From contig QPGO01000006.1 of assembly GCA_008632985.1 (NCBI GenBank), forward strand, positions 186,001-250,000: 64,000 nucleotides of DNA. Direction: 5' to 3'. Shown here in pieces: positions 18,356 to 64,000 of the stretch; the first letter of the stretch is position 1; each line of letters begins with the position of its first letter. The position numbers and the translations under genes were made by a program. The notes below the pieces were generated by a model, which saw only the letters and a program-made list of their open reading frames with translations, was not told where the DNA came from and did not search any database. Source of the DNA: Psammoneis japonica (lineage: Eukaryota).

Positions 18356-18440
18356 CCAGGTTCATGCAAAAATGTTTGTGTGCTCATGACATGAAAAAGT
18401 TGTGCTTTGTTGATGCAGATTTGTGCTTTTGTGCTTTCCA

Positions 18441-18700
18441 GACAGTGATGAAAACAAAAGGTTTGTTGGGTGCTGGGCCATGACAATGAAGCACAGCAGA
18501 TTGTGCAGCACAGCTTGCTGTGGACCAAGGACTGAGTGTTGCAACCCAGTGGGACAAAGGAGGATGAAGTTGCCAGTCAAGAAATTGTGCATTGGTCCAA
18601 ACCTGGACAACAGATTTGATTCCAGATGTGTGCATGCAGAGCACAAGGTGGATGAAGAGTTGACATTTTTGCAGCCAGCAAATTGCTGCTGCAAGAAATG
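18441..18700 (+). pseudogene. Decayed copy of the 3' end of the GT90 gene at 1..605
   Basis: gtttgttgggtgctgg vs gttcgttgggtactgg; tcaagaaattgtgcat shared; gagcacaaggtggatgaag vs gagtataatgtggacgaag. Confidence 0.85.
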
Positions 18701-23669: not shown

Positions 23670-23725
23670 CCGCCAAAGCTCCCGCCGCAGTTTGCCGAAA
23701 GTCGGATTCCCAGCGCACAATGTCA
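23670..23725 (+). pseudogene. Short fragment of the last exon of the kinase at 57097..58893
   Basis: agctcccgccgcagtttgccgaaagtcggattcccag vs agctgcccccgcagtttgcccaaagtcggattcccag (58694). Confidence 0.6.
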
Positions 23726-25500: not shown

Positions 25501-25673
25501 AATCAGGGTCGTCAGCCCAACACATCGTCCATCTAGAGGCGGCGTCTAGTGTATGAACGATGTGGGTGGCACCTTAGTCTGACCTGTTGCTTTGGTCAGT
25601 AACTCTGTGATCATTGTGAGGGTTGGAGTTTATAGACGTAGACTTACGGTGTATAGATGATAGTTAGCTAAAG

Positions 25674-26762: not shown

Positions 26763-28959
26763 GGTCACCTGGTCTCAACTCGATCTATCTCAACTCTCAC
26801 AACAACGCACACCGCATTTCCGATGAATCGATGAATCGGAAAATCGAAAAAAGAGGAAGGCCGGCCGACGACGCCCACCGGCCTCCGGCCGCAGGCCCCA
26901 TACTGTACAGAGTGGCATGATGACGTGGCAAAATATCAAAATTTGGGTGAATCTTGCCTGCATGCATGCATGCGGTCGGCAATTTTTTTCCAAAACTCCA
27001 GAACTAAATACAGTCAATACAGAGGTCACATGATTGGTTAATCCACAAACCGGTGCACATACATTTCTGTCTTTCCCTGCCATGCTGTAATTATCATAGT
27101 GTACATGCACTCAAGAAAACAACAAAAATGACATTGTGCGTGTCCATTTCAAAATCATCGTTGCCTTCATTGATGGGCGGGCAGGGCTCGCTGCATGCTT
27201 GGCACCCCGCCGTTCTGAACGGACAATCAACGACAATCTCTGTGATGCCAGCTGCGTTGCATTGTTCATTGCTTTTCAGCTTTTCAGCCCAGCCAACACT
27301 GTGCTCACAACAAGTGCAGCACGCACAAAAGAGTCATGGAGAGTGCGGCCCATCAAACAAATCACTGAATGGGGTGGAGAGTTTTCTCATTTGACAGCAC
27401 AGCTCCGGTGGGTTCAATTTGCACCAGCTTCAAAAAGAGAAAAAGCCAACGAGGGCAGCCACCCAAGAGCTGCTGACTCTCCCCTTGTCTGATGTGGGCG
27501 GGCTTGCCATTGCACTCTAAAGCCCCAAAAGGCTGCAAGAAATGATGCAAGTCAGGGCATCCTGCCAGTGCCTTCCTTGTTGCCCTGTTTGAAGTGAGCA
27601 AAACAGGCAATGGTGCAAGAGACTTGCTCCAGACTCAGGCGCACAAAGCACAAAAAAGCGCCCCTTTTTTTGACAAAGCATGTGGCCCAAAGAACTTTTG
27701 GCACCACTTTCAAAAGCAAAAACATGACAATTTTCAAATGTGTGGTTGTCGATGCATGCAGAAAGGTCCCACGTGTGTTGCCCGTGCCTTCAAGAAAGCT
27801 GACAATGAGCTCTGAGTTGTTGCTTGCCAAATGGTGCCACAAGATGAGAGCTTGGTTTTCCGATGAGCAGCAATTTGTGATTGTGCACATGTGTGGGCAA
27901 AGCTGCAAAGCAGATTTTCTCATGCAAAAATGAACTTTTTAGCGAGCAACAAACATTGAATTTTGTTGAAATGCTTGAACACAAGTCACTCTCAATGGAG
28001 CAAATGAAGCATTCGTTGGCACTGAAGTTTGAGAAGACGTTTGAAGAAATCAAATGCTCAGCCCATGCTGCAATGGCATTGACACCGAGCCATTTTTTAT
28101 CGGCTTTGTTGGGACAAATGACTGGAACACTTGCGCCAGTCAATGACATGGAGGATGCACATGGAAGTGGAGAACAACTTGTCCTTGGAGGCAAGCTGCA
28201 ATGGAAACGAGGCCCCGCTGTTGTTGCTGCTGACAGACTTGTCTTCTTTTGCCATGCCACAGCCTGTGACAAGCACTTTCCTTTTCATCATTGTTGACAC
28301 AGACCACACAAAATGCTGTGGTCCTCATCATGTCATTCAATTTCGCACAAGTTTGAAAAAAGCAGGCGCTGTCATGGTCGCTGAAAGCCAGGGCTGTTTT
28401 GGCTGTGATTTGGCTCAAATTTCATCTGTTCATGTGACTTGGTTCTAAGCCACAATTGTGGTCACAAAATGATGGGATGTCCACAATGTTGAACAAAGCA
28501 TGAAATGTTTGTTTTTTTGTGCAAAAAGGGTCATGTGCAGGCCACCTAAGTTTGAAGCAAGTCCAAAGGGGGGGGGCTTCCCAAAGATTTGTGCAGGTGT
28601 GGGTGCAAAGTGCTTTGCTTCTTTGTGGCTGTTGTTGAAAGAAGTGGTCACCAGCAAAATGGGTGAAACTTGGGCCAGACTTTCTGCCTCAATTCCAAAA
28701 CAGGAAAGTGCACTGGCGCTGCCGTCAAATGTGTGATAACAAACAAAATCATGCCTGCCATGAGGCAGAGCAACAGCTTAACAATCTGGGTGGGAGCAAC
28801 AACAGCAAGAATGAAAAAGAGAGTGCTGACAAGGACACTTGCAGCATTTTTTTGTGCATCACCTGTGCGATGTGAGCAAGATTCACGGTGCTTGTTGAGA
28901 GCTCTTCTGTGGCAAATGGCACAATGTTGGCAGGTGAGCACACACAATGAGCAAAGCAG

Positions 28960-29505
28960 CACAAAACAACAACCCATTTTGAGCACAAATCATTATTCTT
29001 TGTGTGTGGCACTTTCACAAAGAAAGGCTTGTGTGGATGGGCTTTTGCAGGTGGCCAGAGAGCACAGACATTTGAGCAATCTCTTTTGCAATGCTCAAGT
29101 CCTCATGAGACACGTGTCATGTGAATTCCTCAGCAGACTCAGCGCTGATGTGTGACAGTGAATTTTGCACAGTGAGCCCTGTGCAGGTGGATCAACTGCC
29201 AGAAAGCATGGCACACAAACACCATGTTTTAACGTGCAAACTTTGAACACCTGCAAATCTTCAACAGTTTTGGTGTGCAAATCATTCGTCATGTTGTGCT
29301 GCACATTTGTCACAATGAAAAACACATTGATGGCACAAAAAAAACAACAACATTGCAGAACACTGGGCAGGTCTTGTTGGCATTGCAAAACATTGAGATT
29401 TGAACAAATCTGTGTTTTTGTTGGCAAGAGCTTGGTGGCAAGTCAGAGACTGCACAAAAATTGCACAAATGTCATTTTTGCACATGGCTTGGTTCTCACA
29501 TGGCA
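28960..29505 (+). repeat. Second copy of the dispersed repeat at 1380-1900
   Basis: agagcttggtggcaagtcagagactgcacaaaaat matches the reverse complement of 1422-1456. Confidence 0.75.
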
Positions 29506-29939
29506 GGGACACATCCTGCTCTTGTTTGCCCATGAACCTGCTGGATTTTCTGTGCGAGGCTTTGGTCTGGGTGCAGGGGGGGGGGGGGGGGCAAACTCTG
29601 GAGGAGCAAAGATGTTGTGTCTTGGCTGTGTTCCTCCTGCATGTCAGGCAGGAAATTTTTGCAAGTGGGGCAAGAAGTCTCTCTGTGCAGGAATGAGAAA
29701 ATGTCAGAATGTCTGTCCCTCAGACAGCACAGGAGCATTGTTGTCAACAACTGAGATCTGAAAATTTTTGATGCTGTGTTGAGATGTTGATGCTTGCACC
29801 GCAAGTCAGAAAAAAGCTCAAATTGGGGCATGGTGGCAGCAGAAAATGAGTCTTGCAACAGCGCAACAAAAAAGACAACACACTCAGTTTTGGCCCATGA
29901 TCAGGTGATTTGCAGCTCTCCCTCTTAACCACAAGAAAG

Positions 29940-31950
29940 ATGCTTGCTGCCCACACACAAGCACCTTTCAGCCATCCTGAACATTTCCACAGGGAGCTTG
30001 TTCACAAGAAGCTGATCAGCCAGCTGGTTGGCAGTGCTGACCAGCTAAAGAGCAATCTTTAAATTCTCTGCTTCAGTGCAAAACCAGCACCAATGCCAGA
30101 CACCAAAAGATGTTTGGTTTGTGGAGCAAGTTTGGGCACGCTGGAGAGGTTGAGACAGGTGGCATCATGCCCTTGCAGAAAGAACATTCTGGTGGGTTGT
30201 GGGGCCATTGACAATGTTGAGGGCCTTGGAGTGAGCAGTGGCAGCCCTGCAGCATTCCAGCAAAGTGTGGCATGCTCAGCTTCCATCATGGAAAGTGTGG
30301 CCACCAGGGCTGTGGCTTGGGCACCCAGCAGGTGACTGGACTGCTGGCGCAGCAAACAAGATGGCCCACAACCAACATGGCTTGTTTGTCATGTGCAGCA
30401 CTGATTTCTTTTTGTGTGTGCAAAACTCCTCCACTTTGTCAAGGAAAAATTTGGTGCTTTGATGGAAAAGGTCATCTCTCTGTTGATTGCAAAAGTGCCT
30501 GCCTCATCAAGGGCCTTGCTGCACCTTCTTTGAAGTCCAAAATTTTGTTCCCCCAGACCACCACTGAGCAGATCTGGACCTGGCATCACCATGTCACTCT
30601 GTTGGGATTTCATGGCTTGCCTGCTGATCTGTTCTGGACTCACCAATCCCCAAACTCACCGTGTGGGTTGCAAACACATCTCTGATGCTGTTGCCACCAC
30701 TGCAATGTTGTCATGGTGCAGAAGCTCAAAAGTGTGAACAAGAGACCCAACCTCATGGTGATTTGTGAGTGCAAATTTGCCATGCCATGAACAGTCATCA
30801 GCACAGCTTTCACAGCAACATTGTCTGTTTGTCCTCCAAAAACTGCATCACACCCAATTTTCCAACACAGTCCTCTTCACATGAGCTGTCAATTGGTTGG
30901 CCTTGTGTGCACCAATCAAAGGAGAGGATGACAGTTGGAAGTTTTGGAAGCCATGCTGCCCAAAGCCAAGTTGACTGCTTTGTCAACTCCCACAGCTCAA
31001 ATCATCTGACTCTGCCAACAAGTGGTTGTTGTCACGATTGAGCAAAGGATGACCCTTCTTTGCATGCCCAACCTTGTCACATTTCCAGCATTTGATCTGC
31101 TTCTTCTTATTTTGTGCAAAGCTCGCACCATCAGCTTTTTTGCTGGCCCCGCACATGCCCAACACATGCAGCGCCTCCTTGGCTGAATTGGGGCAATTGT
31201 CAATCCCCATTGGAAACTGTCAGTGTGGGTCCTTCAAGATGCGCTGATGCTCCTTGGCACCTTCCATGAGCAGCACTGCTGACAAATTGTTTCTTTCTTT
31301 TTTCCGGGCATCCCAAGCATCAATGCCAAACCCATCTTCTTTCTGCTTGCCAATTTCTTCTGGGGTGACTCTGCAAAATGACCCTTCCACCATCTCAACA
31401 ATGCCTGTGAACCAACTGCACCAATGATCTTGAGGTGTCTCTCCTTCATCCTGAAGAATGAGCACCAACCACTTCCAAGCCTTGGCAGCCTGAGCATGTG
31501 TGAGCAGATTTTCCCATTTGCACTGCTGATCAAGATCCACTTGAAAAATTCCAACATTGCCACCATGCTCCACTCCTTCATTGCCCCCTTGTGAACTTCA
31601 CTTCTTCAACCTTGTGACATTGTCTTGTGATTGTGTTGAGTGCCTCTGCTTTCTGCATGTTGCAGATCATGCCCTGCTTCACATGGTGGTTGCATTGTTT
31701 CTCCCAGGGTGTCTTGTTCTTCTCTGACATGGTTCTGCCCAACAGATGCCCCAGCTCCTTGGGTTTGTTTTCTTGCTTAAGAGATGCCAGCAAGCACACC
31801 TTCATCTCTGGCCCAAACACTCTTCCAACATGCTCACTCATTTTCCTTGTGGTCTCGATGCACCCATCTGCATCTTGGCCTGACTTGGCAATGAATTCGT
31901 GCACCCACTCCTTTCTGAGAGAGGTTGTCATTTTTGTGCACATTTTGGTT
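29940..31950 (-). mobile_element. Decayed, internally deleted Ty1/Copia LTR retrotransposon
   Basis: In order on the minus strand: gag-like region, zinc knuckle IKCWKCDKVGHAKK, RT-like remnant, RNase H remnants ATLSMMEAEHATL, PKLAPQTKHL, TANQLADQ; LTRs not identified. Confidence 0.65.
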
Positions 31951-32551
31951 CACGTGCAGCTGGAACACGTCATCCATGGAATCCCAACACAGAAGCAAAA
32001 CAAAATGGCAAGGCATGACACTTGAAAGAGTGAAGTCAATCAAAGGCAAAGAGACAGTCTCCGGAGGACCTTGCTGGGAGGAAGCTGCCAGGCTTTGCTG
32101 AAAGGGTGCAGCAAAGTTTTGTGCTGGACCAGGAGAAACATCAACGTGGGCAAGGACATGACAGAGCATGGAAGTATGAAAGATTTGAAATGTCTGTCGA
32201 AAATGGGAGCAAAAGTTGCTCTCAAGGCCGATTGCACAATTTTCCCCTTTCAAGTGCAGTTGTGGAGACTGTTAATCAGGGCGCCATGTTATCTGGGGTG
32301 TGCACGAGAAGAGGCTCAAAAGAGGAGCAACACTGTTTTGTTGACAAACAATTGTGTGAATTACTTTGTGGATAATGGCGAGTGTTTTAATAACATCAGA
32401 TTGAATCACCACAATTTTGAAAATGACCGGCGCCTGGATCTTGTCATGTCTTTCTTCGCTGTGAGAATCATCATTTTCTCTCCCTCGCGGTTACCAAAAG
32501 TCCAAAATTGAATTGAATGGGCGGTTTTCAACCGAAAGAGAAAGCAGCATC

Positions 32552-33811
32552 CTATTCTACAAGACGGAAGATTTTTCGAAGCTCACTTTCAGTCACTTCT
32601 TTTTGCCGATTTCCCCAATCAATCACTTGATCAAATGCTCGTAATATCACAAGTGCAGAAGGCCTGTGTTCTGGATCGAATTGATAGCACGCACGGTAGG
32701 CTATGCGCAAAGCGCGGTCTTCGAGCCTGGTAGAATTGGCGAATTCTTCAGGCAAAAATGGCAAGTGTCCTTTTGCCTTCTTCGCGATCACCTCTTCGTT
32801 GGACAAGGAAGTCGGCTCAAGACTAGTCCATGGCTCATTGCTGGTCAAAACAAGATAGTAAACATTGCCCAATGCAAAAATGTCCAGCTTCTCGGAAACA
32901 TAAGAGGCGCCTCGGATTTCTTCGGGAGACCTCCAATGGGCTCCGCCGAAATCGACAGGAAACCCACAGGGCTTTTGCGACGTAGCGTTGTACCTCAGTA
33001 AAACGCCAATGTTGAAATCATTGTATTTGATCTGTCCAGTCAACGTTTGTACCAAGTTAGATATGTTAATGTCACGGTGGCAAAAGGTCGGTTCGGACGT
33101 TCCGTCCATGTAGTGCATATGATACATCCCCCGTGCCAAGGCCCGTGCCAGGACAATCCTGTCGCGAATCCCTAAACTTTCTTGATTTCTATGCAACGCA
33201 TGTTTTATAGATCCCGGAGCGAATTCAGAAATTATAGATTGACCACAAAAACCATACGCAGTCACAGCATACGGGGACGAAGTTAATCGTTCCATTGCTA
33301 TTGCCTCCGCAGTGGCGAGTGGGTAAGATTCATCTTCAAATTCACGATGGTAATGTAACATTTTTAGCACCACCACTTCTTGGTCGAGAGGAACCTTCCA
33401 AACCAGCCGCCAAGAACCACCCTGCGAAAGCACTAGAGCAGTTCCGTTGTCGTGATTAGAAGCAGCAATATTTAGTTCATGGATGACGTTGCACGTTGAA
33501 TAGACCCGTGTTTGCCATTCACGCATCGGCTTGCACTCTTCGACAAAGGGACGATGGTATTCATCGAAACGTATCTCCCGCGACAGACCGGCGTTCATAC
33601 CAATCGGTGGGACTGTTTGCTGATAATGGCTGGTGTTTTTAGGAGAAAGGGTCGGATGGAAAACGAAGACTCGAGGTCTGTCAGCCTTCTTGTCAGCGAT
33701 GTTTGACTGGGGAAATGCATCCGAACAAAATTGTTGCCAAATCAGGAAATATGAGATGCTCAGTGAGATAAGAAATAAAACCGGTCCCTTCCGTTCAACG
33801 CGTTTCATCAT
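32552..33811 (-). CDS. Membrane-anchored protein kinase (secretory-type, kinase A)
   Basis: TM VLFLISLSISYFLIW; QGGSWRLVW, VVLKM, CHRDINISN, NDFNIG, WRSPEE, KLDIFALG, DPEHRPSA; start uncertain (ORF extends to 33946). Confidence 0.85.
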   Translation of the reverse strand: MMKRVERKGPVLFLISLSISYFLIWQQFCSDAFPQSNIADKKADRPRVFVFHPTLSPKNTSHYQQTVPPIGMNAGLSREIRFDEYHRPFVEECKPMREWQTRVYSTCNVIHELNIAASNHDNGTALVLSQGGSWRLVWKVPLDQEVVVLKMLHYHREFEDESYPLATAEAIAMERLTSSPYAVTAYGFCGQSIISEFAPGSIKHALHRNQESLGIRDRIVLARALARGMYHMHYMDGTSEPTFCHRDINISNLVQTLTGQIKYNDFNIGVLLRYNATSQKPCGFPVDFGGAHWRSPEEIRGASYVSEKLDIFALGNVYYLVLTSNEPWTSLEPTSLSNEEVIAKKAKGHLPFLPEEFANSTRLEDRALRIAYRACYQFDPEHRPSALVILRAFDQVIDWGNRQKEVTESELRKIFRLVE

Positions 33812-34389
33812 TTTTCCATGGCAAGCAAATACTGTGAACATCGAACATAACAGGAACAACAAGTTGAAAGTGAGCCGAGAGCCGAGCCGTCGGCCTTGTG
33901 ATCTCTGCGCGTCACAGACGTTGTCGGACGAGCGCGCGATGTGCACGTACGGGGCCTTTTCGGCTCTTAGTCATTGAATAGAAAAATTTCAACTTTATTT
34001 ATTAAGAAACATAATATTCTAATTCTTAGATACCAAATCTCAACGGATACGCAACTTATTGACTGGACCTCGGAGTATCATTCGCAACATCGTACAGAGG
34101 TACGAAGATTCTACGCGAATTCGAAAATTTGACCGACTGATCCATGATGTCGTTTTGGCCGCGACGAATCGAAAAATCAAGTGGAAATAAATGACGACCG
34201 TTTCATCGCGCGCTGCATTTTGCCGGTAGAAGCAACACCATGGGTACGTCTTTCTCGAACTCCGCCGTCGTTGTTTGTCGCATTGATTACATGATTGATG
34301 GTAGTGATGCAAGAAACATGGAGAGAGAATAGTCGTTCTAGATTCGCTTCCGGTAATATGTATTCTCATCCTTCATTCTCGCTCGCTCA

Positions 34390-37300
34390 TTGCACGTAGT
34401 AGCTTCGAGAGGGCACAAATTGTTCATCGCGTTGCTTGTGATTGCTTTGTTTCTTTCGTACGTTCCATTATGGTTCAGTGTTTTCCACAGCAGCTACGTC
34501 TACCGAATAATTCCTTACGATGCCCTTAATGCTACTAAATTTCTGTCGTCCAACTCTCGCCGTCCTGAGGACGAGAGCAGCGAACACGTGATTCAGTTTT
34601 ACGGCAGCAAGGACGAAGCTGACTCTAGGTCAAGACGCTTTCCATCCGTTGATGAGAGGGTTAGAATCTATATGAGCAATTGGTACCTGCCGGAGTGCAA
34701 TGCCACAAGAAGAATCCTGTACCGTTCCAAGAATCAAACATCCTTGACGTATCTCGTCCAAGAAGAACAAAAAGGAACTGCGTACCAGCGTGTAATCAAG
34801 GCTGGCGCAGACCCTGTCATGGATCGCATCTTTTATGCGGCCAAGCAAGAAATTTCCAAGTGCGTAGCCGAATCACCCAAAGGTTTGCGAAGATATTGCA
34901 CAGATGTTCAAAAGACACTTTCACAGCTACTAGAGCTTCAAGCACAGCAACAACTGCGAGAGTCTTCTCCGCCCATGTTGTTCCAGTTTGGCGATACTTC
35001 GTTTACCACAGCTGCAACTTCCCCAGCCATTGTAGGTAGGACAGATATCCATCCGCGGGTTCCCCATTTCAAGAAGTTTCGTCAAGCTATCTCTCGATCG
35101 AAACTTGAACATGTGGTGACGGATGTTCTGTTTTCTGATGCCGATGACAATAAGACAAATCGAGATGACGCCATTTGTCGCAATCCTCCGAGCCAGGGAC
35201 ACCATCCTCGTGCTATGCCTAACATGCATCTGCAACCAATCATTTGGAAACTGAATACAGAGCGGCACTACATTCATTTACGCGAAATCCCTCGATGGGA
35301 TATTCCTTGGCAGGACAAGATGAATCAAGCTATCTTTCGAGGCGCGTTAACAGGTTCAAGCCGTGTCAAGGCGCGAATACTTGAGCTACCCGGAAATGAC
35401 GTTTCCAAATGCTTGGCACTGGATCGATGCCGTGTCGTCTATCGGCACGCCAACTCTACTTTGGTTGACGCGAAACTTACAAAGACGGATCAATTGATTA
35501 ACAGTAATGTCGCGGGAGTACCGTTGATGTCTTCAAAAGTGCCCATTGCGAAGCTTCTGCAATACAAAATGATACTGATACTGGAAGGTAACGATGTGAG
35601 CAGTGGTTTAAAATGGGCTATGTTGAGTGGATCAGTTGTCCTGATGCCTCCTCCTCGGTACACATCGTGGGCCATGGAGGAGCGATTGGAACCTTGGGTC
35701 CATTATGTTCCCGTTGAAAACTTGGATAATATCGACGAGCAGGTTCGCTGGGTGCTACGTCATGATGCAGAGGCCCAACGAATAGCCCATCGTGGTTCGC
35801 TGTGGATAAAGGACTTGGTTTTACACCCAGACGCAGAGAAGGACGACGAAGCGGTTTACCAAGAAATCATTCGTCGATACCAGAAACATTTTGTGCGATC
35901 GGAAAACCTTGGCATCTCTTCAATCTACGACAGCATTGAAGAAGCCAATGCACGGTCTTCTCGCTTTCCATCTGTTGAAGAGAGAGTCAAAATCTACATG
36001 AGCAATTGGTACATACCTGAATGCAATGACTCCCGAAAGATCCATTATTCCCATCAAGTTCCAAATGCGAATACGACGACGGACGATGTGACATCTTCCG
36101 GTTTGACATTTCTGATTCAAGAAGAGCAGGATATAAAAGCATTTAGCCGGGTAGTAACGATTGGCACATCCGTTGGCATCGACCACATGTTTCACGCAAC
36201 GCAACAAGAGATATCCACATGTGCGAGTGACCTTGGCAGCTATCTTCGACATTATTGTCTTGATGCTGAACATTCAATGCGATCTCAACTACTGTTGCAA
36301 GCACGTGACAAGCAAGATGGGGGGTTCGCAACGCCCCCACTTTTACTTCAGTTTGGCGATTCTTCCGTTGCGAAGGTCAGAACAGAGCGCCATATCCGTG
36401 TTCCCCATTTCCATAAGTTTCGTACAGCTATCAGTCATTCGGAACTAGAACGTGTGACTGCGGCGATGAGATTCAATGCTGACAACGACTCTTCCAAACA
36501 CTCTAATCGATCCGGTACAGCTTGTTGGGATCATGCAGCAAAAGTTCCTCACGCGATGCTGCCAAGCATGCAATTGCAGCCCATCATCTCCAAAATGAAT
36601 TCGAGACGACATTATCATGACGTATCCGACGTTCCCGATTGGGATATCCCTTGGCAGGCGAAGAGGAATGTGGCCATTTTCCGGGGCGATCTAACTGGCT
36701 TTGGCCGTGTCCAACACAATGCTACGATTGTTGAATTGCCTAGTCATGATGTTTCCAAATGCCTGGCATTAGTACGATGCCGTGTTGCCTATCTGCACGC
36801 GAACTCTACCTTGGTCGACGCAAAGCTTACACATACTGTCGATTTGGTAGACAGTGTCATCAACGACGTCCCCGTTCTTTCACCATTTCTCGATATAAAA
36901 CAGCAACTGCAGTACAAAATGTTATTGATATTGGAAGGTAACGATGTATCCTCGGCTTTAAAATGGGCCCTAATGTCAAAGAGCGTCGTCCTAATGCCTC
37001 CCCCAACATACACGTCTTGGGCAATGGAAGAGCGTCTTGAACCCTGGGTCCATTATGTCCCCATTGAGAACTTGGATAACATTGATGAGCAGGTCCTCTG
37101 GGTGCTACGTCATGATGCAGAGGCCCAACGGATAGCCCATCGTGGTTCGCTGTGGATTAAAGATTTGGTTTTACACCCAGAGGCAGAGCAGGACGATGAA
37201 GCGATTTACCAAGAAATTATTCGTCGATACCAGCAGCATTTTGTATATTCGAACCACCTCGACGTTCCCTTGACGCCACAGAGTGTCAATCGAGTCGATT

Positions 37301-38433
37301 CTCCTTCCAGCGGTATCGTCGAAAATGAAGCGGCGTCATCTATTGAATCAGACTCGTTGGTCTCAGTAGCGTCTATGGTTGACTTATCAAAAGTTGACAT
37401 CACTGTAGGCGTCTACTACTATCCTTGGCATGCAGATGATTTCCACGGCGGGGGATATTTACGAAAGAAGCTGTCACCGCAGCAGCTTCCTATACTGGGT
37501 GAATACGACGATCGTCGTAGTGACGTCATTGGGCAACATTTAGAATGGAGCCGACAAGCAAATATCAAACTATGGGTGGTGAGCTGGTGGGGCAAGCAAG
37601 ATAGAACAGACAACAACACCTTGGAGGTAATCCTTCCACACAAGGAGCTCCAAGACCATAAGATTGTTTTGTTTTACGAGACCGAGCGTAGGTCTGACTT
37701 CAAGGAAGTTGCAGATGACGTGTCCTACATTTGTGAAAGATACTTTAGTCATGCCAACTATCTCCGTATCAAGGGCAAGCCAGCGTTGGTCATTTATCTA
37801 ACGAGGGCCATGGCACAGAGCGGGACCCTCGAGATGTTTGTTGCAATTGTAAGACAGGCCGCACAGCGTTGTGGTTATGATGTGTACCTCATTGGTGACG
37901 ACGATCCAGATTCTGCGAATGTGAGCTTGGAGTTCTTGGATGCCGTGACGAGACACGATGTGTACGGCAAGGTCAGGGAGATGACGCAAAACGGGTACGC
38001 CGGCAATGGAGCGTTGGACACGTACTATTCCGCCCATGCACGGTGGCGTCAACAGGCTATCGCAAGAAAAGTGGGTTTCATCCCTGGCGTTACTCCCGGT
38101 TTCAACGACCACGGTGTTCGTCAAGGGAATCCTGCATTATCCAGGAAATTGAATGCCACTTCAGACTTTGGTTCGTTTTTTCGTGCGTCGCTGCATAAAG
38201 CTGCATCGTTAGTCGACTCATCGACTGACAATTTGCTTTTTGTAACGTCGTGGAACCAATGGCATGAGGACACCCAAATTGAACCTGTTGCTCGCTCAAA
38301 TCAAACTAAGGTAGACGTGAGCAGCAGCAAGACCAACTTTACAAGTGGTCTGGAGTACGAGGGGTACGGATCTCGATACCTCGATATCTTGCGAGAAGCG
38401 ACCAACAGGAAAAACGTGTCAGTGACTGAATGA
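34390..38433 (+). CDS. Type II membrane fusion of two tandem GT90 (CAP10-like) modules and a C-terminal GH99 (endo-alpha-mannosidase-like) domain
   Basis: Repeated module RFPSV.ERV.IYMSNWY...QYKM.LILEGNDVSS.LKWA; GH99 motifs VYYYPWH, LGEYD, VSWWG, TSWNQWHEDTQIEP, YLDILRE. The ORF start is TTG; a possible exon from ATG 34307 with intron 34353-34402 restores the frame. Confidence 0.85.
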   Translation: MHVVASRGHKLFIALLVIALFLSYVPLWFSVFHSSYVYRIIPYDALNATKFLSSNSRRPEDESSEHVIQFYGSKDEADSRSRRFPSVDERVRIYMSNWYLPECNATRRILYRSKNQTSLTYLVQEEQKGTAYQRVIKAGADPVMDRIFYAAKQEISKCVAESPKGLRRYCTDVQKTLSQLLELQAQQQLRESSPPMLFQFGDTSFTTAATSPAIVGRTDIHPRVPHFKKFRQAISRSKLEHVVTDVLFSDADDNKTNRDDAICRNPPSQGHHPRAMPNMHLQPIIWKLNTERHYIHLREIPRWDIPWQDKMNQAIFRGALTGSSRVKARILELPGNDVSKCLALDRCRVVYRHANSTLVDAKLTKTDQLINSNVAGVPLMSSKVPIAKLLQYKMILILEGNDVSSGLKWAMLSGSVVLMPPPRYTSWAMEERLEPWVHYVPVENLDNIDEQVRWVLRHDAEAQRIAHRGSLWIKDLVLHPDAEKDDEAVYQEIIRRYQKHFVRSENLGISSIYDSIEEANARSSRFPSVEERVKIYMSNWYIPECNDSRKIHYSHQVPNANTTTDDVTSSGLTFLIQEEQDIKAFSRVVTIGTSVGIDHMFHATQQEISTCASDLGSYLRHYCLDAEHSMRSQLLLQARDKQDGGFATPPLLLQFGDSSVAKVRTERHIRVPHFHKFRTAISHSELERVTAAMRFNADNDSSKHSNRSGTACWDHAAKVPHAMLPSMQLQPIISKMNSRRHYHDVSDVPDWDIPWQAKRNVAIFRGDLTGFGRVQHNATIVELPSHDVSKCLALVRCRVAYLHANSTLVDAKLTHTVDLVDSVINDVPVLSPFLDIKQQLQYKMLLILEGNDVSSALKWALMSKSVVLMPPPTYTSWAMEERLEPWVHYVPIENLDNIDEQVLWVLRHDAEAQRIAHRGSLWIKDLVLHPEAEQDDEAIYQEIIRRYQQHFVYSNHLDVPLTPQSVNRVDSPSSGIVENEAASSIESDSLVSVASMVDLSKVDITVGVYYYPWHADDFHGGGYLRKKLSPQQLPILGEYDDRRSDVIGQHLEWSRQANIKLWVVSWWGKQDRTDNNTLEVILPHKELQDHKIVLFYETERRSDFKEVADDVSYICERYFSHANYLRIKGKPALVIYLTRAMAQSGTLEMFVAIVRQAAQRCGYDVYLIGDDDPDSANVSLEFLDAVTRHDVYGKVREMTQNGYAGNGALDTYYSAHARWRQQAIARKVGFIPGVTPGFNDHGVRQGNPALSRKLNATSDFGSFFRASLHKAASLVDSSTDNLLFVTSWNQWHEDTQIEPVARSNQTKVDVSSSKTNFTSGLEYEGYGSRYLDILREATNRKNVSVTE

Positions 38434-44952: not shown

Positions 44953-45139
44953 TAAATTCCCCGCTTAGTGACCTCAGTATTCGTGCTTTTTTTGTCCTGC
45001 AAAAGTGTTAAAGTGTAGCAGAGGCCCCTTTTCATTTTGAAGTTGAACCTATGCGGGAACAGCTCGGAACCCAAAAACTCATCATCAGTTGCCCCCATCT
45101 TGTCCAATCTACATTATTTTTGCAAAATCATCAAAAGTC

Positions 45140-47250
45140 TTGGATGATCCTTGCGACCTGCCCCAACCTTCCACACCAGTGGCACATTTTTCAGCAAGAT
45201 TTCAGGATTTCAACTGTTGCAGCAACATCATTTGCTTCATGAAAATTGTGTCCAATCCCACATCCCACGTGAACAGTGCTGCCCGTGGATGGAGGAAACA
45301 TGTTGGCCAGGCAAAGCAGCAGCCATTGGTCAAATGACATTCCTGCCAGAGCAACAGGATTCATTCAAGTCAGCAACAGCTGAAAGAAAACCAACAGCTC
45401 AACAGAAAAAACTGATGGTGAAATCACTGCACTTGTTGAAGATCAAAGCCCATGACACTCACACAGTGTGTGGGCACCTTGTGTGCTTCAGCGTGCACCA
45501 GGAAATTCTTTGTGAAACAAGCCAGATGTTGTTGCCACACAATGCATGGGAAGAGCCCACAAATTTGCCTGTTTCCTTCCACTGATGAAGGGCAAGCACC
45601 ATTGTGCTGTGCTCATCTTTGGCTCAAACAATCTCTTTTGAGGGCAACAATGTGCAAATTTGCGGGGTTCTTGAGGATGGGTCATTGTTGTGTGGTCAGT
45701 TTTGCAGGAGCTTGCAGCTTTCATTAAAAATCTGGAATGTCTTGCAACAAATGCACATGCTCACCAAAATGAAATTTTGGCGACAGGTCAAACTTTTTCT
45801 GCAAGACATTGCAGAGTGCATCATGGACGATGGTTTTGACCATGCATGGTGTTTGGCTTGTTGACTGCAGACATGTTCACAGCCAGTCAAATGCCAATTG
45901 TTTGCATTTCCTCTGGAAAGAAGTTGTCAGCATGTTCCAGCTCCAAGTGATCTGTGATCCATCACACCAGATGTCAGCTTCCAGCTGACAGAGCTGAGGG
46001 TCGCATGATTTGGCACAAGGAGCTCCTTCAACTTTGATCATTTAAAAAATCAAAAGGTGAGTGCACAAAAAAAAATTAAGTTTTGTGTGCACTCACCCTT
46101 CAATTTTGGAAAAAAATCAAAATCAAAGGAGTTTGTTGTGCCAAATGCAAAAATGGGCCAGATCGTGCTTCTTTTTTCTTTTTTGGACACCCAGAGCTGG
46201 AAAAGGCCTGCAGGGCCAGCCTGCCACAAACTGCAAGCAACACAAGTTTGTTGAAAAGTGGTGGTTCATCAAATGTGACAACCATGCCATGCCTGACAAC
46301 TGGCACATCAAGGCTGAAGGCTGACAAGTGCAGCTCACACTGCAAAAGTCTGACAGCCCCAGCAGAAGGCAGAAACATTCTCTCGCAAGCATTTGGGGGT
46401 GCTCAAAGGCATTGCAAAATGAGGCAGGTCAAATGCAGGAAAACAGGAAAGTCACGAGACATCAAAAAACAGCACCAGCCAACAACCCATCCTCAAATTG
46501 CAGAGTTTTAAGTCACAACCAGCTTGTTTTGCTGCGAATGCATCGCTGCCTTGTTGCTGAAGCAAATGCACCAAGAACACTCTGCGGTCAAACATCCATG
46601 CAAGAAGCAGGCCTGCTGCAGGTGAAGCAAGACAGGTCCCTCTGTTGGCATGACAACCACGCATGTTTCACATGCCCTCTGAATGCAAAGGGCTGCAGCT
46701 GTGGTTGTCACGACAGCGCAAAGTCTGGGTGGACTGTGTGCATGTTTTGTAAATGCCTGTCATCACAACCATCACTTGCGGGACCTGGTGATCAATTGCA
46801 GTTGACATTGTGGTCATTTTCTGCAATTTAAGAACCACACAAATTTGACTTTTCTTGGCTGCTGCTCTTTGCAGCTGCTGAAGCAGCCCTGCCCCGTTGA
46901 AAGCAATGTTCTCTCCAGCCAGCAGAAGCTGTGCGCTGCTGCGTGAGTGCACATTTTTTGTGCCCCAGTGGTTGATTTTTGTTTGACCCTAACATGGGCC
47001 CACTCTCAACAAAGAAGTTCAGCATCTTGAATCCTGCTCGTGTCTGAGCAAGGGTTGCTGTGGGGCAGGGGCAGTGCCCCTGAACAAGGCACAGCACTTT
47101 CAGCTTTTGTGTGTGAGAGGAGGGTGTTTCCTCCACCCTCCACCAGACAGTTGCAAACCTGTTGGTGTTGCCTGTTTAGCTTGCACGTCGTGAGGACTCA
47201 CACAATGCTCTTCGTGAACAACCGTGAAACGGAGAAGACCTCACCTGGCT
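45140..47250. other. TpA/CpG-depleted domain 5
   Basis: TA and CG nearly absent. Confidence 0.85.
45930..46210. mobile_element. Palindromic MITE-like element, copy 2
   Basis: tgttccagctccaagtga ... aaggtgagtgcacaaaa / ttttgtgtgcactcaccctt ... gagctggaaaaggc; shares aaggagtttgttgtgccaaatgc with the reverse complement of 16949-16971. Confidence 0.6.
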
Positions 47251-47699
47251 GACCACCTTGGAATTAATCCAGGTTTTTCACGCCACGTCATCGTCCCTAA
47301 GTGTTCTTTGCACGGGAATAGTACGTCATCGACCACGCAACAACGTCGGAAGTCGCACGTCGTTTCGACACTTGCACCAGGCTTCGGGGGGGGGGCGTTT
47401 ATCTCCCGGGGTACTCCACCGTACTTTGTATGTGGCATTCTCATGTACATCCACATGGCCCAGAAAATCAGGGATAGACGAGTTTCTTCCGAGATCGCCC
47501 CGTTTTAGCCATAGTCCTAATTTCGAACAATCGCCAAGCAGACCGCCGCCACTTTTTCTTGTCTGTGTGGGCGGTGGCAACGTCGTGTCAACAGCAGTGT
47601 ATCGCTGTCTATCTGAAGGAATACGAAAATCTCTGATTGTTGTCACCAATAGCGCAGTCGAATATTCTACACCTTCACCTGAGAAAGCATTGGGGAAAA

Positions 47700-57096: not shown

Positions 57097-58893
57097 ATGG
57101 CGGAAACCAATGGGAACCACCGCCCAAGAACATGGTCGGCTCCAACAAGTAGAACATGGTTGGAGCGACAGTCCCTACTGCCAGTTATTGTGGCCTATGT
57201 TTTATTCGAGATAGGGGGCACGAAATGCAACTGGAGAGCCTTACAAACGTTGCTACGTTACCGACTCATGCGAGACACTGTTCAGACAAGACCAACAGTC
57301 GCGTTTTATGATTCAAATGCAGCAGAGTCGTTTCTGGTGAGAAACGATTCTTTTAAGCCACGATCTATCATTGACATGTGGTTGGGGAACCACGATGAAC
57401 GCCACGCGTCCTACAAGGAAAAAGGGATCTTGACTCACCCAATGACGAGGGACGGCCAAGACGGAAGAGACATTTGTGAACCAGCTGCTGATTGGCAGTC
57501 ATGGATCTTTCCAACGTGCAACAAACTTCATGAAGTCGGATTCCAGCTCATCGACGAGGATATTGACATCCCATCCATAGCAGACGAAGAAGAAATATAC
57601 AGGATAGTGAAAGAGGAGCTGGAGAAAGAGGAGCTGAAGAAAGAGGATGAGGAGGAAGGGTCAAGCAAAGGTGATCTGACTTTAGAAGCACTATCAAGCC
57701 AAGAGAATCAGGCACTACCGCTTCTGAACGAAGAACAGCAAAGCCGTCGACGCCTTAATGGGTACGAAGAAGAGGTTGACGGCGAAGCGTTCGAGTCGGA
57801 TGAAGGCAACGACTCCATTTTTGACGTTATTGATAACTATGCACCAATCATGACGTTGTTGGGCACTGGAACCTCACGTGATGCATGGAAAGTGGATTTT
57901 GAGTTACCAGAAAATGAACAAGAATCGGTCGTGTTGAAAACGTTTCACTATGATCGACCTTTCTCCCCGAAGTCCTTCCATCACCAGCGACTCGATGCGA
58001 TTGTCTCAGAACGGCTTACGTTTTCTCCTTATGTGGCTGACATATATGGCTACTGTGCTCTCTCGGTGTTGAATGAACTTGGACAGCATGTGGATATTGT
58101 ACCAACGCACCGAGCTATGGACCGCCTGCGATTCTCGAGAGACTTGGCTGCTGGTCTAAGAGATGCACATCATGGTCTTGACAACGGGAGAAACAAGAAG
58201 CGCAATCAGTTCGATGCTTTGCATCATGATGATGTCGAGTTTGTCCAAGATAATGCAGCCATGGTAGTGCACGCTGATTTGCGCCAGAACAATGCCTTCT
58301 TGTCTCTCGAAACGGGGAAAATGAAGCTCTCCGATTTCAATCAAGGTGTATTTCTCGGTCGCAATAAAATCAACGATGAGCCTTGTGGTTACCTCCCAGA
58401 ATTTTCGTATTGGCATGATCGACTGGCAGCTCCTGAAGAATGCATGGGTACGGTTCAGGATGAAAAAACCGATGTGTACCACTTGGGTGGTATGATATGG
58501 TACTTCATGACTGGGTTCAAGGTAAGCAGCCCGCAGGAGGTTTTTCATGTATTCATTATTGAAATTTACTTCTTCGTCGCTTAGTCTCACCCTCCCTTTC
58601 TCCAGCCATATCACGAGAATAGGCATGATTTGGAAGAAAGAATTGAGAAAAAGGATGCTTCAAAAGTCAATAAAAATACTTGGGCCTTGCCGCAGCTGCC
58701 CCCGCAGTTTGCCCAAAGTCGGATTCCCAGTATAGTCGCCATGAAGAACGCAGTGACGGCTTGTCTGAAATTCGACCCGAAGGAAAGGGCAAGCGCTAAC
58801 GACATTTTCTTCATGCTAGATAACGCACTGTCGATGCTGGAGAAAAGGGCGAAACAGCAACATGCACCGCGACATTTGCAACCCCAAGGCTGA
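57097..58893 (+). CDS. Membrane-anchored protein kinase (HADL/DFN subfamily, kinase B) with acidic insert; intron 58522-58605
   Basis: LGTGTSRDAW, VVLKT, VHADLRQNN, SDFNQG, KTDVYHLGG; exon 2 DPKERASA. Confidence 0.85.
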
Positions 58894-58959
58894 GACCATG
58901 TCATCACCTGCTGTAACTTAGATGGCCCTTACTCTAGAGAGTGCTGCAACAAAACTGTC

Positions 58960-59475
58960 GAAAGACATTTAGTGCATGGCATGCTTTTCTCCCTTCGTCC
59001 ATGTTGAGACATCGTATTCCCCATCCCCCGCACTCCAAACCACATGTAAAGTTGGCTCTTGCTGATGCTCAAGTCTACCTTAATTATAGAGTTGAGCAAG
59101 CAAACAGGTTCAATTTGGGTATCCTCAAGTCATTGTTTCCATGGCGTTGCCAGAAGCAAGTTGTCAGTTGATGGCATTCAATTTCCTTGACAGCACAGGA
59201 TTTTTCATTGACGACCAAACATTGGGGGGCATTGAGGCCAGGAGCAATGCCAGGGATGAAAACCACTCCTCCAATGATGGCCTGTTGATGCCACCTTGCA
59301 CGGGGGTGGAATGACAAGTGCCCACTGTTCGCAGTTGCCAGCACACCTGTTTTGCATCATCTGTCTGACCTGGCTGCACACACCATGTCTTGTCACAGCA
59401 TCCAAGTGCTCCAAAATCACACTGTCAAAATCTAGATCATCATCAATGAGGTGATGTCACAACATTGTGTGGCCC
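58960..59475 (-). pseudogene. Decayed copy of the GH99 domain of 34390..38433
   Basis: Reverse complement aligns with about 37860-38430 (gaggatacccaaattgaacctg, ggaaattgaatgcca, tttcatccctggc); stops and frameshifts. Confidence 0.9.
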
Positions 59476-60329
59476 ATGATGAGCAATGCTGGCTTGCATG
59501 GCCACTGCCATTGCCATGGAGAGAGATGGTGTGCTGATTGAAGAATCTTTCTTTTGCAAGTGTGTGACGTGTCATCTGTTGTTTCTTTGAAGTTTGACCC
59601 ACAGCCAGTCCTGCAAAAAAAGGCAGCCTCTCAGCAATCTTAAATGTCCTTGTTTGCAGCAGGATTGCCCCTTCCCAAGTGCTGCTCTCATCTGTTTGTC
59701 ATGTGCTTGCCCCACCAATTTGTTGCCCCTGGCTTCATGTTGTTTGCTTGTCCTCAGCTCTGCTCGAAACACTGCTCAGCCACATTGCTGCAATGACTGC
59801 TGTGGCAAGCACTTCTTTTTTGTGAGAAAAGCTCCTCTCAGCAGTGGAAATTGTCTGTGTGTGACCAACCACATGTGTGCAATGCTTCAGATGAAAATGA
59901 GAGCAGCTTCAAGGTGCTTGCAAAAAGACCATTTCTTTGGCAATGTGGTGTTTTTCGTCCCAGGTGCTGGAGATTGTGTGCCCCATGCTGATGGGGGGGT
60001 GCAGCTGGTGTTGGGGGGGGGGGGGCAATGCTGTGTGCATCCATCTGGCAACCCCTGTCATTGCTCTTCAACTGAGCTGAGTTTTTGGCTCTGCGTTGCT
60101 GGAGAAAAAATGTTTTCAGGCACAGGCCAGCAAGCAACCTCAGTCATCAACACAGTGCAACATGCACTTCTTCCTTTTCTCCCTTCTCTTTCTTTCTTTT
60201 CCCATTTTTTCTCTTCTCAACTCCAAAATCTTTTGTGACACATCAGAGGGGTCCAAAGCTCTTCGTTTTTTTCTTCTTCCTCTTCTTTGCAATTGTGCTG
60301 GGAAGAAAAGTTGATTTCGCAGGTTGTGA

Positions 60330-61030
60330 GCACTTTGTCAAAGGCACAACTTGGCTGCACAGAAGCATCTGGCCCAAAACAGGCTTGATTGAGGAAGCTT
60401 GTCATCTGATGGTTTCTGATTTGGCAACAATTTTGTTCAGATGCATCGCACCACCCAGCCAAGCCCCATGACAAGAAGACTGCTGGAAGCCAAGCTGTTG
60501 ACCCTCACTCCCTAAAACGCCAGCTGAGGTGCCAGCTGATGTTGACAAACAACAGCCCCAGCAATTGGCACAAGCACCAGTTTGTCCTGGCAGAATGCAG
60601 CTGGTGCAGCTCTGTGGAAAAGCTCAAGTCAATGCATGAACAGCCTGCTCTTTGCACAACTCCATCCATGAAGCATGTGAGATGCTGCTGCATCTAACAG
60701 CCACAGCAGAAATGCCCAAGTGTTGTGGCTGGCTTGGAAAGTTCCTGTTGACAACAACAAGAAGCAGTGGCACCAAAAATGTTGTGTCATCATTGCAACT
60801 TTGGCCAGGAATGCCCCACCCACTCACTGTTGCAGAGGAGGCAGCAGCCACAGAGCAGCTCATTTTGTCTCCACATGCTGTGACAGGAGCATGTGGTTTT
60901 TTAGCGGCCAATCTGCAATTGCCAAATTTGCTTGATGGAGACCATGTGTGGCAGTGATTTGGTCAAAAATGAAAAGGGCTTTGGGGCTCACAAAAAAGTT
61001 GTTTTTGCAAGGGATTTGTCACAGGGAAAA
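60330..61030 (+). pseudogene. Decayed copy of the 5' part of kinase A (32552..33811)
   Basis: ctgatttggcaacaattttgttcagatgcat vs ctgatttggcaacaattttgttcggatgcat; ccacatgctgtgac vs ccgtatgctgtgac. Confidence 0.85.
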
Positions 61031-61813
61031 GATGCAGTCATTCTCTTGTTCAGTTGCAGACTCAGTGCTTCAAAAAATGGCCTTGGTTGGCCAATTTGAC
61101 CTTGGCTCAAACTTCACACATTCCTCCTGAGATGAGCACAGTGCTCTCTGCCATTGTTCACCTGAGTGCGCTCAGCTTGCAAGTTTGCAGCTGGCAGGGC
61201 AGCAGGTGCAAGAAGCCAGTGCTCACAACTGAGCAATGTCATCAGCACACCAGGTTGCTCAGAGCAGTGTGCCACCACTGCAAAGGTTGCTGTGGGCACC
61301 CAACAAAGTGTGCCCCCCCTTCAACTAGCAGAGACAAGAAAGAACATTTCCTGAAAACACTCCCCTGATGGCAGCCATGTGCCAGAGGGCAACTTGGCAC
61401 AAAAGCGGCTTTTGTCTGCCAGCACGTGCCAAGAGAGCAGCATTTTTCATTTCCATCTGAGCCAAACTGTTGCAACAAGATCATGTGCCAAAACCCCAAG
61501 AGACAGAAAAACCAGCAGAACTTGCTGAGGGCCGAGGGCAAAAGCAAAACTCACAACCCAGCAGCCAGGCAAGATTCAGAGTTGTGGCTGTTAGAGTCAA
61601 CATGCACTGCAGGCTTGGCAAGCATTTGGTGGGAACTTTGTTGAATTGCACAGTGTCCGTTTTGATTGGTCCCGCAATTTTTGCAGACACGACTCGACAT
61701 GATGGAGCCATGATGTTTTCCTTCTTTTTGAAAATTTGGCCACTGCGCGTGGACGGCATTGCATCAATTTTTGCTCATGTGCCAATCCACAACACAGGGT
61801 GTGGTTCTTCACC

Positions 61814-62047
61814 ATGACAAGGATTGTTGCTGCTCTCACGGTCTTTGCATGGGCCTTTTTGGCCATGGTTTTTCCAGCTCAAGCTGGTTGCCACGTTTTG
61901 TGTCGCCACAGGAGGGAAACTGTCAATGACAAGGACACAAGAAACAACAAGATTGATGGAGACAAGATGGCCCAAGACTTTGTAGAGTGGCAGATGATCA
62001 ACGAGGAACAGAGGATGGCACAGGAACTGTCCATGTCCATGTCTTGA
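61814..62047 (+). pseudogene. Probable decayed small secreted protein ending in SMSMS
   Basis: Signal-like MTRIVAALTVFAWAFLAMVFPAQA and a C-terminal SMSMS of the kind seen in diatom proteins; Tyr-free and TA-poor. Confidence 0.35.
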
Positions 62048-62741
62048 GCCTGTGTGAGATCTCCGAGGCTCAGTCGATGTGTGCAGGGGGGTGGAAGATG
62101 AGGATTGCAGCGGTCGGTGGCTGCTTAGATGATGAAGAAAAGGGCGAACAAACTTGTCGTGCAGTGACATAATCAGAATGTAGGCTTTTTAGCCAGCATC
62201 TTTATCTTTTTCTCCTCTTCATCTGCCGTTTGTGTCGTCATTTTCCTCCACCAATTGTGCACTGGATCAAAAGATCTATTCGCGACACTCTACCCTCCAG
62301 TCCTGGGGGTTGCGAGAATTGTGCCATGACTCATGACCGCCATTCTGCATCGTGTCTCGCTCATGCGACACCTCGTAGCGGTAGTTATGGGTTGCCATTC
62401 GGTCAACAACATGTGTTCGAGTAGGGCCCTAGTCAGAACCGCAGCGCCACTCGCTCTAGTAAACGACCTGTGCTATTGTGACAGAAGCACACTTATGACT
62501 CATTCTAACGAGAATTTCGGCATTGTCGGAGACGGTTACCGTGCATAAAAATATGGTATGGACGAAAGGCGGACGACGATGAAGAGTTCAACTCTGTGGA
62601 TTCGCATCTACAGTATCACTCAGAATCTTTTACATTCTTCTAACTTACTGTTTCGGATGCCGGCATATGGCATATGGATGTGTCTCACACAAAAGATATT
62701 GCGAAAAACTGTGTGTACAGCAGATGGAATCCATGGGCGTG

Positions 62742-63480: not shown

Positions 63481-63719
63481 GTCTACGATTCAGTTCTAAG
63501 GACTCCCTCTCACCCACTCTCTACCACAGTACGCTACGCGTGTCGCGATTGTTTTTGCGATGCGTGATGTATAGGGCCCTAGGTATCTGCGTCGTGCGTG
63601 CTTCCTCGTCGTCTGACCCGTGGCCACCACGCACCGCTGACGTGACAGAGCATCATTTTTCAAAGCGCACTGTGAGAACAATTTTTCATGCAGAATTGCC
63701 AAGAAGATGGATGGGGAGG

Positions 63720-64000
63720 ATGGAGGTCGCTGCTGTTTTCCATCGACTCAAAACTCCTGATCACTGCCTCCTTCTGTGAGCAGAAACTCTGTGCAAAACA
63801 CCAAAGCAATCAATGAAATGGAACAAGAAGGGGAGCTGATGGATCCTTTGAAGACACAAAAGCTGTCTGGAGGTGTTTGTCCTCAGTTGTTCAAGAAGAC
63901 AGATGAGCTTGTTTTTGTTGGATGGAGGAGCTGCACTGTCCAAACAACCACAAAAAACTCACACCCTCCAAAGCTGTCATGGGCAGCTTTTTAAATGTGC
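63720..64000. other. Start of TpA/CpG-depleted domain 7
   Basis: TA and CG almost absent to the end of the window. Confidence 0.65.

Follow-up and report, generated by a model that had tools for sequence, protein, structure and literature searches.

How can long stretches of a nuclear genome lose nearly every TA step and most CG steps without a change in G+C content, and what confines this loss to particular stretches? These questions are raised by a 64-kb window of the diatom-like stramenopile Psammoneis japonica (contig QPGO01000006.1 of assembly GCA_008632985.1, positions 186,001 to 250,000; 'the window' denotes this whole stretch, numbered from its first base). An initial annotation of positions 59170-59475, which lie in a dead copy of a GH99 endo-mannosidase-like domain, proposed a repeat-targeted hypermutation that converts TA to TG or CA, the reverse of fungal repeat-induced point mutation (RIP), alongside conversion of CG to TG or CA. 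Here, we confirm that the depletion is real, and it is stronger than first stated. With a probability of roughly 0.7, we read it as a directional, near-saturated, regional conversion of TA and CG on both strands, brought about by two processes.

Blocks depleted of TA and CG

Two states can be told apart when composition is computed along the window in steps of 1 kb. Over most of its length, CG occurs at about its expected frequency and TA at ~0.6 of expectation; in the depleted state, the observed/expected ratio is ~0.1 for CG and ~0.03 for TA, TG and CA stand at ~1.9, and G+C is near 0.48. Segmentation on the share of CG plus TA among pyrimidine-purine steps delimits nine blocks of 0.4 to 8.5 kb, which total 23,905 bases, about one-third of the window, and reach far past the stretch originally flagged. 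With expected counts taken from the density of the window outside the blocks, TA falls to 69 steps against 1025 expected (7% survive) and CG to 274 against 1315 (21% survive), and TG and CA each rise ~1.6-fold (2761 against 1751 and 2693 against 1671, respectively). The summed frequency of pyrimidine-purine steps is nevertheless 0.2426 inside the blocks and 0.2411 outside, and the loss of CG plus TA (0.0835) matches the gain of TG plus CA (0.0852), as pure conversion of CG and TA to TG/CA predicts. G+C is 0.48 both inside and outside, because the TA process gains G+C and the CG process loses it. The blocks are as follows.

693..2134: hypermutated block; CG 23, TA 2, TG 189, CA 158
2758..3229: hypermutated block; CG only partly lost (observed/expected 0.45), TA observed/expected 0.10
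3567..4478: hypermutated block; CG 22, TA 2
11840..20301: largest hypermutated block, 8.5 kb; CG 68, TA 19, TG 1039, CA 938
23684..25543: hypermutated block flanked by convergent gene ends; CG 27, TA 3
27212..32290: hypermutated block; CG 54, TA 16; contains copy 29036-29500 of repeat 1384-1818
45017..47265: hypermutated block; CG 29, TA 11; includes a multi-copy repeat at ~45852-46161
59077..62115: hypermutated block with the originally flagged stretch; CG 31, TA 12
63611..64000: further hypermutated block, running off the window end; CG 7, TA 1

For the most part, blocks occupy the longer intergenic gaps, and they end 65-500 bases from coding frames. The largest sits between the 3' ends of two convergent genes and contains a dead copy of GT90 (18426-18932) and a pair of inverted repeats (17321-17618 and 18023-18322), and block 59077..62115 contains the dead GH99 copy (59016-59741, minus strand) and a dead kinase fragment (~60330-61030). 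A repeat common to 45852-46161 and 16936-17028 has a summed contig depth of 281-573 against ~59 in the flanks. Other genomic copies of the repeat at 45852-46161 run into a tRNA-like 3' piece in which CG is kept; an ARAGORN scan of the window for tRNAs returned no genes. The erasure of TAA and TAG makes the blocks rich in long empty frames: their 23.9 kb hold 121 frames of at least 90 amino acids, none with a credible Pfam match, and the sub-threshold hits to TMEM132_C and Ral look like chance.

Conversion in dead gene copies and its direction

Three gene pairs within the window allow the conversion to be followed site by site. Two live genes provide the reference.

34357..38433, plus strand: live GT90-GH99 fusion gene, 1358-amino-acid frame, source of ancestral states
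32552..33970, minus strand: live gene for a protein kinase, set against the dead fragment 60330-61030

The fusion gene encodes two GT90 glycosyltransferase repeats (35216-35894 and 36560-37244; 74% identical) and a GH99 endo-mannosidase-like domain, which aligns with solved GH99 endo-mannosidases; the 1358-residue protein has no usable match in the protein atlas. A further partial GT90 copy occupies 1-692, and its continuation beyond 693 is hypermutated. In a tblastn search of the window with the live proteins, the dead copy of GH99 falls at 59741-59016 and that of GT90 at 18426-18705, and all ten strings quoted by the initial annotation are present where it placed them.

When live positions 37540-38270 are aligned with the reverse strand of 59120-59760, none of the 19 TA steps in the live GH99 sequence is kept and 16 have become TG or CA; 2 of 32 CG steps are kept and 24 have become TG or CA. 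TG is kept at 30 of 42 positions in this pair, and CA at 31 of 47. The GT90 pair (330-692 against 18441-18800) retains none of 11 TA steps (7 to TG/CA) and none of 17 CG steps (14 to TG/CA), and the kinase pair (reverse strand of 33150-33830 against 60330-61030) retains 1 of 25 TA steps (15 to TG/CA) and none of 32 CG steps (22 to TG/CA); in these two pairs, the remaining 14 dinucleotides are kept at 52-56%. Summed over the three pairs, 1 of 55 TA steps survives and 38 read TG or CA, and 60 of 81 CG steps read TG or CA. The joint conversion that the initial annotation had read from short strings is thus seen in every pair once dinucleotides are tabulated along whole alignments.

Several comparisons bear on the direction of change. 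For an outgroup, we aligned the live protein with the first 60 of the GH99 homologues collected. Among 31 amino-acid changes of the CG/TA-to-TG/CA type, these homologues favour the live residue in 27 cases and the dead residue in 1, with 3 ties, which bears out the claimed direction for TA and CG alike. For example, at eight Tyr codons (TAC or TAT) that are shared with 50-60 of the 60 homologues, the dead copy instead encodes Cys or His. A second comparison is free of polarity: in two repeat pairs with both copies in blocks, TG stands opposite CA in 24 of 58 dinucleotides that differ at both positions, against 8 of 136 in five repeat pairs outside blocks, an excess that would follow from independent resolution of an ancestral CG or TA in each copy. 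Finally, a second genomic copy of 61804-62018, on a separate contig assembled from the read set X1, exceeds the window copy by six CG steps and, on balance, by one TA. The three dead gene copies, the outgroup proteins and the polarity-free comparison all identify TA and CG as the ancestral states and TG/CA as the derived ones.

A sharp boundary inside a duplicated segment

The duplicated GH99 segment extends beyond the end of the gene, and the mutated zone halts within it.

59100..59145: sharp block edge within the duplicated GH99 segment, from the alignment
58623..59119, minus strand: unmutated half of the dead GH99 duplicate, a built-in control

Converted sites extend to ~59143, and TA and CG are intact from ~59100 down to 58623, which places the edge within ~50 bases. 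The control half keeps 9 of 14 TA steps and 14 of 18 CG steps. Relative to the live copy, transversions per site are 0.083 in the mutated half and 0.086 in the control half, whereas transitions are 0.182 and 0.085, respectively; the two halves are of equal age and equally dead, and their fates differ. Non-coding DNA 3' of GH99 (38536-38700 against 58881-58720) is ~90% identical between the live and dead copies, above the coding part, which suggests a constrained element or gene conversion.

TA and CG are also normal in eight short spacers between live genes, and live gene copies are untouched. Three introns, at 56156/56280 (GT..AG), 62764/62889 and 49586/49801, are defined by spliced joints in contigs of a second read set, X2; their 461 bases hold 26 TA and 27 CG steps. 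A genome-wide bias hidden by selection was considered and is excluded by the normal introns, the spacers and the control half of the duplicate. X2 is labelled 'DNA?' and behaves as RNA over 47575-63556, with spliced joints and very uneven depth. Its cover is blank on blocks 45017-47265 and 59077-62009, a blank that is not evidence of silence; we infer from sequence features that the blocks are probably silent chromatin.

The position of the edge bears on how sites might be chosen. In RIP-like targeting, recognition of homology between duplicated DNAs would precede mutation, and the blocks do contain duplicated gene fragments and multi-copy repeats whose copies were converted independently after duplication. 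However, the edge lies inside the duplicate and leaves ~500 duplicated bases (58623-59119) unmutated at 82% identity and at equal transversion divergence, the live copies are untouched, and a single X1 contig (46132-60025) spans the dead GH99 copy and the first ~950 bases of block 59077-62115 at the depth of its flanks. Together, the edge and the contig depth argue against homology-triggered targeting, at least for events that are not older, and we regard such targeting as improbable. 'Repeat-targeted', as the initial annotation had it, is therefore unsupported.

The same contigs bear on the possibility of artefact. Built from X1 reads by a different assembler at a word depth of ~59, they show zero or one difference from the window across 44001-62018, a span that includes two blocks; X1 may be the same sample as the window assembly. 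This match excludes a mistake in the assembly of the window itself but not a platform-wide error; these contigs carry the converted sequence, not intact TA. Long contigs at depth ~59 are not like the product of error-prone reads. On some platforms, base modification can lead to systematic miscalls. An artefact or an origin other than mutation (miscalls or misassembly at modified bases, foreign DNA with a native scarcity of TA and CG, or a genome-wide bias that selection conceals in genes) would accord with blocks that lack recognizable genes. It is contradicted by the identity of the separately built contigs across blocks, by the presence within blocks of host gene copies with outgroup-polarized changes and by the retention of TA and CG in introns, in spacers and in the control half of the dead GH99 duplicate. 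We consider this origin very improbable and already largely refuted.

Strand pattern and flanking bases

TG and CA outcomes are equally common. Runs of like outcome number 19 in the GH99 pair (21.8 expected), 11 in the GT90 pair (11.5 expected) and 21 in the kinase pair (18.4 expected); no strand-coordinated clusters are found in the three gene pairs, and along eight blocks the order of TG and CA shows no more clustering than it does in normal DNA. Each event thus concerns a single site, and both strands are hit, in contrast to a deaminase that moves processively along one exposed strand.

Flanking bases influence which steps survive. TTAA accounts for 20 of the 69 TA steps surviving in blocks, against 65 of 1512 TA steps elsewhere (Fisher test, 6e-11), and CTAA/TTAG for 17 of 69 against 129 of 1512; ATAT or GTAC accounts for none of the 69 against 245 of 1512. 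An additive per-strand model fits the ten contexts, with TA lost most rapidly when C or T follows the A, less rapidly when G does and least rapidly when A does, a 3' order of C ~ T, then G, then A. Among CG survivors, GCGC is favoured and TCGA disfavoured. In the GH99 pair, the rate of A-to-G change per adenine is 0.44 after T (18 of 41), 0.25 after A (19 of 75), 0.08 after C (7 of 89) and 0.10 after G (7 of 73), compared with 0.16, 0.08, 0.03 and 0.05, respectively, in the control half; the proposed preference for adenines that follow T holds. A clean extended motif, in which TA before C or T is vulnerable and TTAA is spared, was tried and rejected: it fits block composition and mispredicts four of four CTAT outcomes in the GH99 pair.

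Comparison with known systems

The initial annotation knew of no described mechanism for the TA conversion. As regards the phenomenon, this is outdated, as hypermutation of TpA only has been measured in the rhizarian Bigelowiella natans (Mettrop et al., bioRxiv 10.64898/2026.01.13.699255). According to the text of that preprint, 231 of 302 nuclear point mutations in mutation-accumulation lines hit an integrated giant virus and a virophage; with one exception, these 231 were A:T-to-G:C changes, on TpA, at a rate of ~6e-7 per site, ~1000-fold above background, and the authors hypothesize an ADAT2-like adenine deaminase. In our full-text literature search, no report of regional TA depletion in diatoms was found, and the signature was described only in this preprint.

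The parallels, as far as the preprint text describes them, are close: TpA becomes TpG or CpA on either strand through A:T-to-G:C change, and the effect is regional, with clusters depleted of TpA and enriched in CpA plus TpG. There are also several differences. First, B. natans is a rhizarian, whereas the present alga is a diatom-like stramenopile. Second, the reported B. natans targets are two regions of integrated viral DNA, whereas the recognizable content of the blocks here is dead host gene copies and a multi-copy repeat, with a viral domain in none of 121 frames. Third, the giant-virus region has a TpA rho of 0.45 and the virophage is not depleted, whereas here TA is saturated at an observed/expected ratio of ~0.03-0.1. 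Fourth, G:C-to-A:T change is described as rare in the B. natans hypermutable region, whereas here CG is lost, with 60 of 81 steps converted to TG/CA. Finally, a rate was measured in B. natans, whereas our data are end-state sequence only. The main text of the preprint contains no occurrence of CpG, no diatoms and no flanking context, although its supplementary tables may hold flank-context data; sparing of TTAA is reported here only.

Fungal RIP resembles the present case: it, too, is a hypermutation by transitions, destroys DNA that is non-genic or duplicated and can be recognized by a dinucleotide signature. The initial annotation's description of a reverse of RIP is right as to direction, as RIP converts CpA to TpA and yields an AT-rich product, whereas here TpA becomes CpA or TpG, TA is at 7% of expectation and G+C is unchanged. 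Moreover, RIP mutates both duplicates along their length, whereas the present live copy has escaped mutation, as has half of the dead one. Decay of CpG through 5-methylcytosine (5mC) likewise converts CG to TG/CA in silent DNA with a reciprocal gain of TG and CA; alone, it spares TA and lowers G+C, unlike what we observe, and methylation of the present blocks is putative. Diatoms are reported to methylate CG in transposons in a DNMT5a-dependent manner, and DNMT4 enzymes, which are related to RID of fungal RIP, occur in many of them (PMC9998398).

Separation of TA loss from CG loss

About 1 kb of the window is TA-poor with normal CG.

2135..2757: TA-only zone; TA 6 against 26.7 expected (Poisson P 1.6e-6), CG 28 against 34.3
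2385-2620: long inverted repeat with arms of ~50 bases, inside the TA-poor, CG-normal zone 2135..2757; perhaps a foldback element
3230..3566: second TA-poor, CG-normal zone; TA 5 against 14.5 expected, CG 18 against 18.5

An opposite composition is found at 4801-6000, where G+C is 0.42, CG occurs 25 times in 1200 bases and TA is high at 82; a direct repeat (4980-5093 and 5336-5450) lies there.

Within the blocks, TA is erased further than CG (7% against 21% surviving), and the ordering of CG flanks, with GCGC best and TCGA worst, has no counterpart among the TA preferences. The converse of the TA-only zones appears in L027, a metagenome contig of a relative whose chlorophyll-binding protein is 65% identical to that of the window: at 6001-7000, CG falls to 1-3 per 500 bases and TA is kept at 11-14, which reads as CG decay without the TA process. 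Because TA loss is separable from CG loss, we argue that the TA editor is not a by-product of cytosine methylation.

These observations also bear on a single enzyme, either a dual-specificity deaminase or a RID/DNMT4-like enzyme, that would attack both self-complementary pyrimidine-purine steps, CG and TA. Such an enzyme would account for the block edges that both depletions have in common in most of the window, diatoms are reported to carry the RID-related DNMT4 widely (PMC9998398), and ADAT2 enzymes cited in the B. natans preprint are said to accept A as well as C (bioRxiv 10.64898/2026.01.13.699255). By contrast, the TA-only zones with normal CG, the CG-only loss in L027, the opposite flank preferences of TA and CG and the restriction of B. 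natans hypermutation to TpA, as described in that preprint, all speak for two activities, and we consider one enzyme distinctly unlikely.

Proposed mechanism

The three causes put forward by the initial annotation (an adenine deaminase, a mutagenic base modification and biased repair) are all still candidates. In the two-process reading, the blocks between active genes of the nuclear genome, which contain decayed gene copies and repeat fragments, would be silent, methylated chromatin. One process, probably enzymatic, would be a TpA-specific A:T-to-G:C change that turns TA into TG or CA almost to completion. The other, likewise nearly complete, would be a decay of CpG to TpG or CpA of the kind produced by methylated cytosine. 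For the first process, a chromatin-targeted DNA deaminase could turn adenine preceded by T into hypoxanthine, which would replicate as G. Taken alone, the adenine-deaminase step is tentative, falling somewhat short of even odds in our estimate; we favour it because of the 5' preference for T and then A, and because of the precedent proposed for B. natans. The 5' order in the GH99 pair (T > A > C, G) agrees with the ADAR/ADAT family preference of U/T > A > C, G, given in part in the Discussion of bioRxiv 10.64898/2026.01.13.699255. No deaminase is present among the window frames scanned against Pfam, a scan of the window only.

Thymine rather than adenine could be the altered base. 5-Hydroxymethyluracil (5hmU) and 5-formyluracil occasionally mispair with G. 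A TET/JBP-type oxygenase that made either base at TpA in silent repeats could thus give T-to-C changes, and sequence cannot separate A-to-G on one strand from T-to-C on the other. Dinoflagellates provide a precedent: their TET/JBP enzymes are reported to make 5hmU, a base that is concentrated at repeats and coincides with 5mC; according to older studies, the T that it replaces lies preferentially in TA and TC (PMC11572971). The parallel, as described in that paper, lies in an enzymatic mark on T, a TA preference and occurrence at repeats together with 5mC, which recalls the co-located losses of TA and CG here; the mark differs in that it is described as epigenetic, not mutagenic, and also prefers TC. 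TC does fall in the blocks (ratio 0.81), a figure in which any loss of TCG is pooled; a separate TC effect is conceivable. The indistinguishable strand lesions and the dinoflagellate precedent make thymine oxidation the main rival to adenine deamination, although we judge it unlikely.

Biased repair could also couple the two losses. Very-short-patch repair purges CTAG in enterobacteria, and a thymine-removing activity that serves 5mC deamination might likewise 'correct' replication T:G mispairs at TA to C:G. Such an activity would tie TA loss to methylated regions, consistent with its co-location with CG loss, and would give single-site events on both strands. Nevertheless, TA is also lost where CG is normal, the B. 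natans rate of ~6e-7 per site reported in the preprint is very high for capture of mispairs, and biased repair should raise CG in TG contexts, whereas CG falls. This explanation has little probability in our view; a single dual enzyme, RIP-like targeting and biased repair are all less likely.

Several points weigh against two processes with an adenine deaminase at work in the first. ADAR favours G as the 3' neighbour, and in eukaryotic ADAT substrates A34 is followed by G, A or C; the 3' preference observed here (C ~ T > G > A) is unlike either. In the GH99 pair, CTAT becomes CCAT in four of four cases, opposite to the strand predicted by the survivor-based flank model. A-to-G change after A also rises in this pair (19 of 75 against 6 of 77 in the control half), yet AA is not depleted in block composition, and the motif is accordingly not cleanly defined. 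The 121 block frames, none with a credible Pfam match, also count on this side. The enzyme, base modification and methylation are each postulated from sequence. Finally, among 67 metagenome loci encoding relatives of the window's chlorophyll-binding protein, double depletion of CG and TA occurs in none of the 25 loci of at least 2.5 kb, L027 included; this sampling centres on expressed genes with short flanks and says little on breadth within diatoms.

Other genes of the window

Named relatives closest to the window's chlorophyll-binding protein belong to Leptocylindrus danicus (80%), Corethron hystrix (74%) and bolidophytes, which places the window in a diatom-like stramenopile and not in B. 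natans; a search for homologues of GSDH, by contrast, pointed to no taxon. The window also has a weak match, below threshold, to the HA domain, which is common in diatoms. The other genes of the window are intron-poor. On the minus strand, 39407-43054 is a 1215-amino-acid open frame without a Pfam match, and AT skew is strong (-0.29) at 40001-42000. Adjacent frames at 7431-11343 match a PQQ-type sugar dehydrogenase, PKD domains and a multicopper oxidase with a B-lectin domain, and may be one gene interrupted by introns or shifts.

Implications

New here are a second, distant lineage with the TpA signature, its saturation, its occurrence in apparently non-viral, probably silent DNA, a CG decay that is coupled to TA loss yet separable from it, and the TTAA exception. 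One practical consequence is a trap for annotation, in that the blocks offer long empty frames; another is that the signature would mark silent chromatin from sequence alone. More broadly, a second lineage turns a single-species curiosity into a comparative problem, in which genes common to the present alga and B. natans and absent from signature-free algae become candidates for the editor. We tentatively propose, at rather less than even odds, that stramenopiles and rhizarians have in common a chromatin-targeted A:T-to-G:C editor of TpA that acts on any silenced DNA, viral or not, and that, together with cytosine methylation, would amount to 'RIP in reverse', an erasure of silent DNA at constant base composition. 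If so, a natural enzyme that makes A:T-to-G:C changes in chromosomal DNA would be of interest both for genome defence and for base editing.

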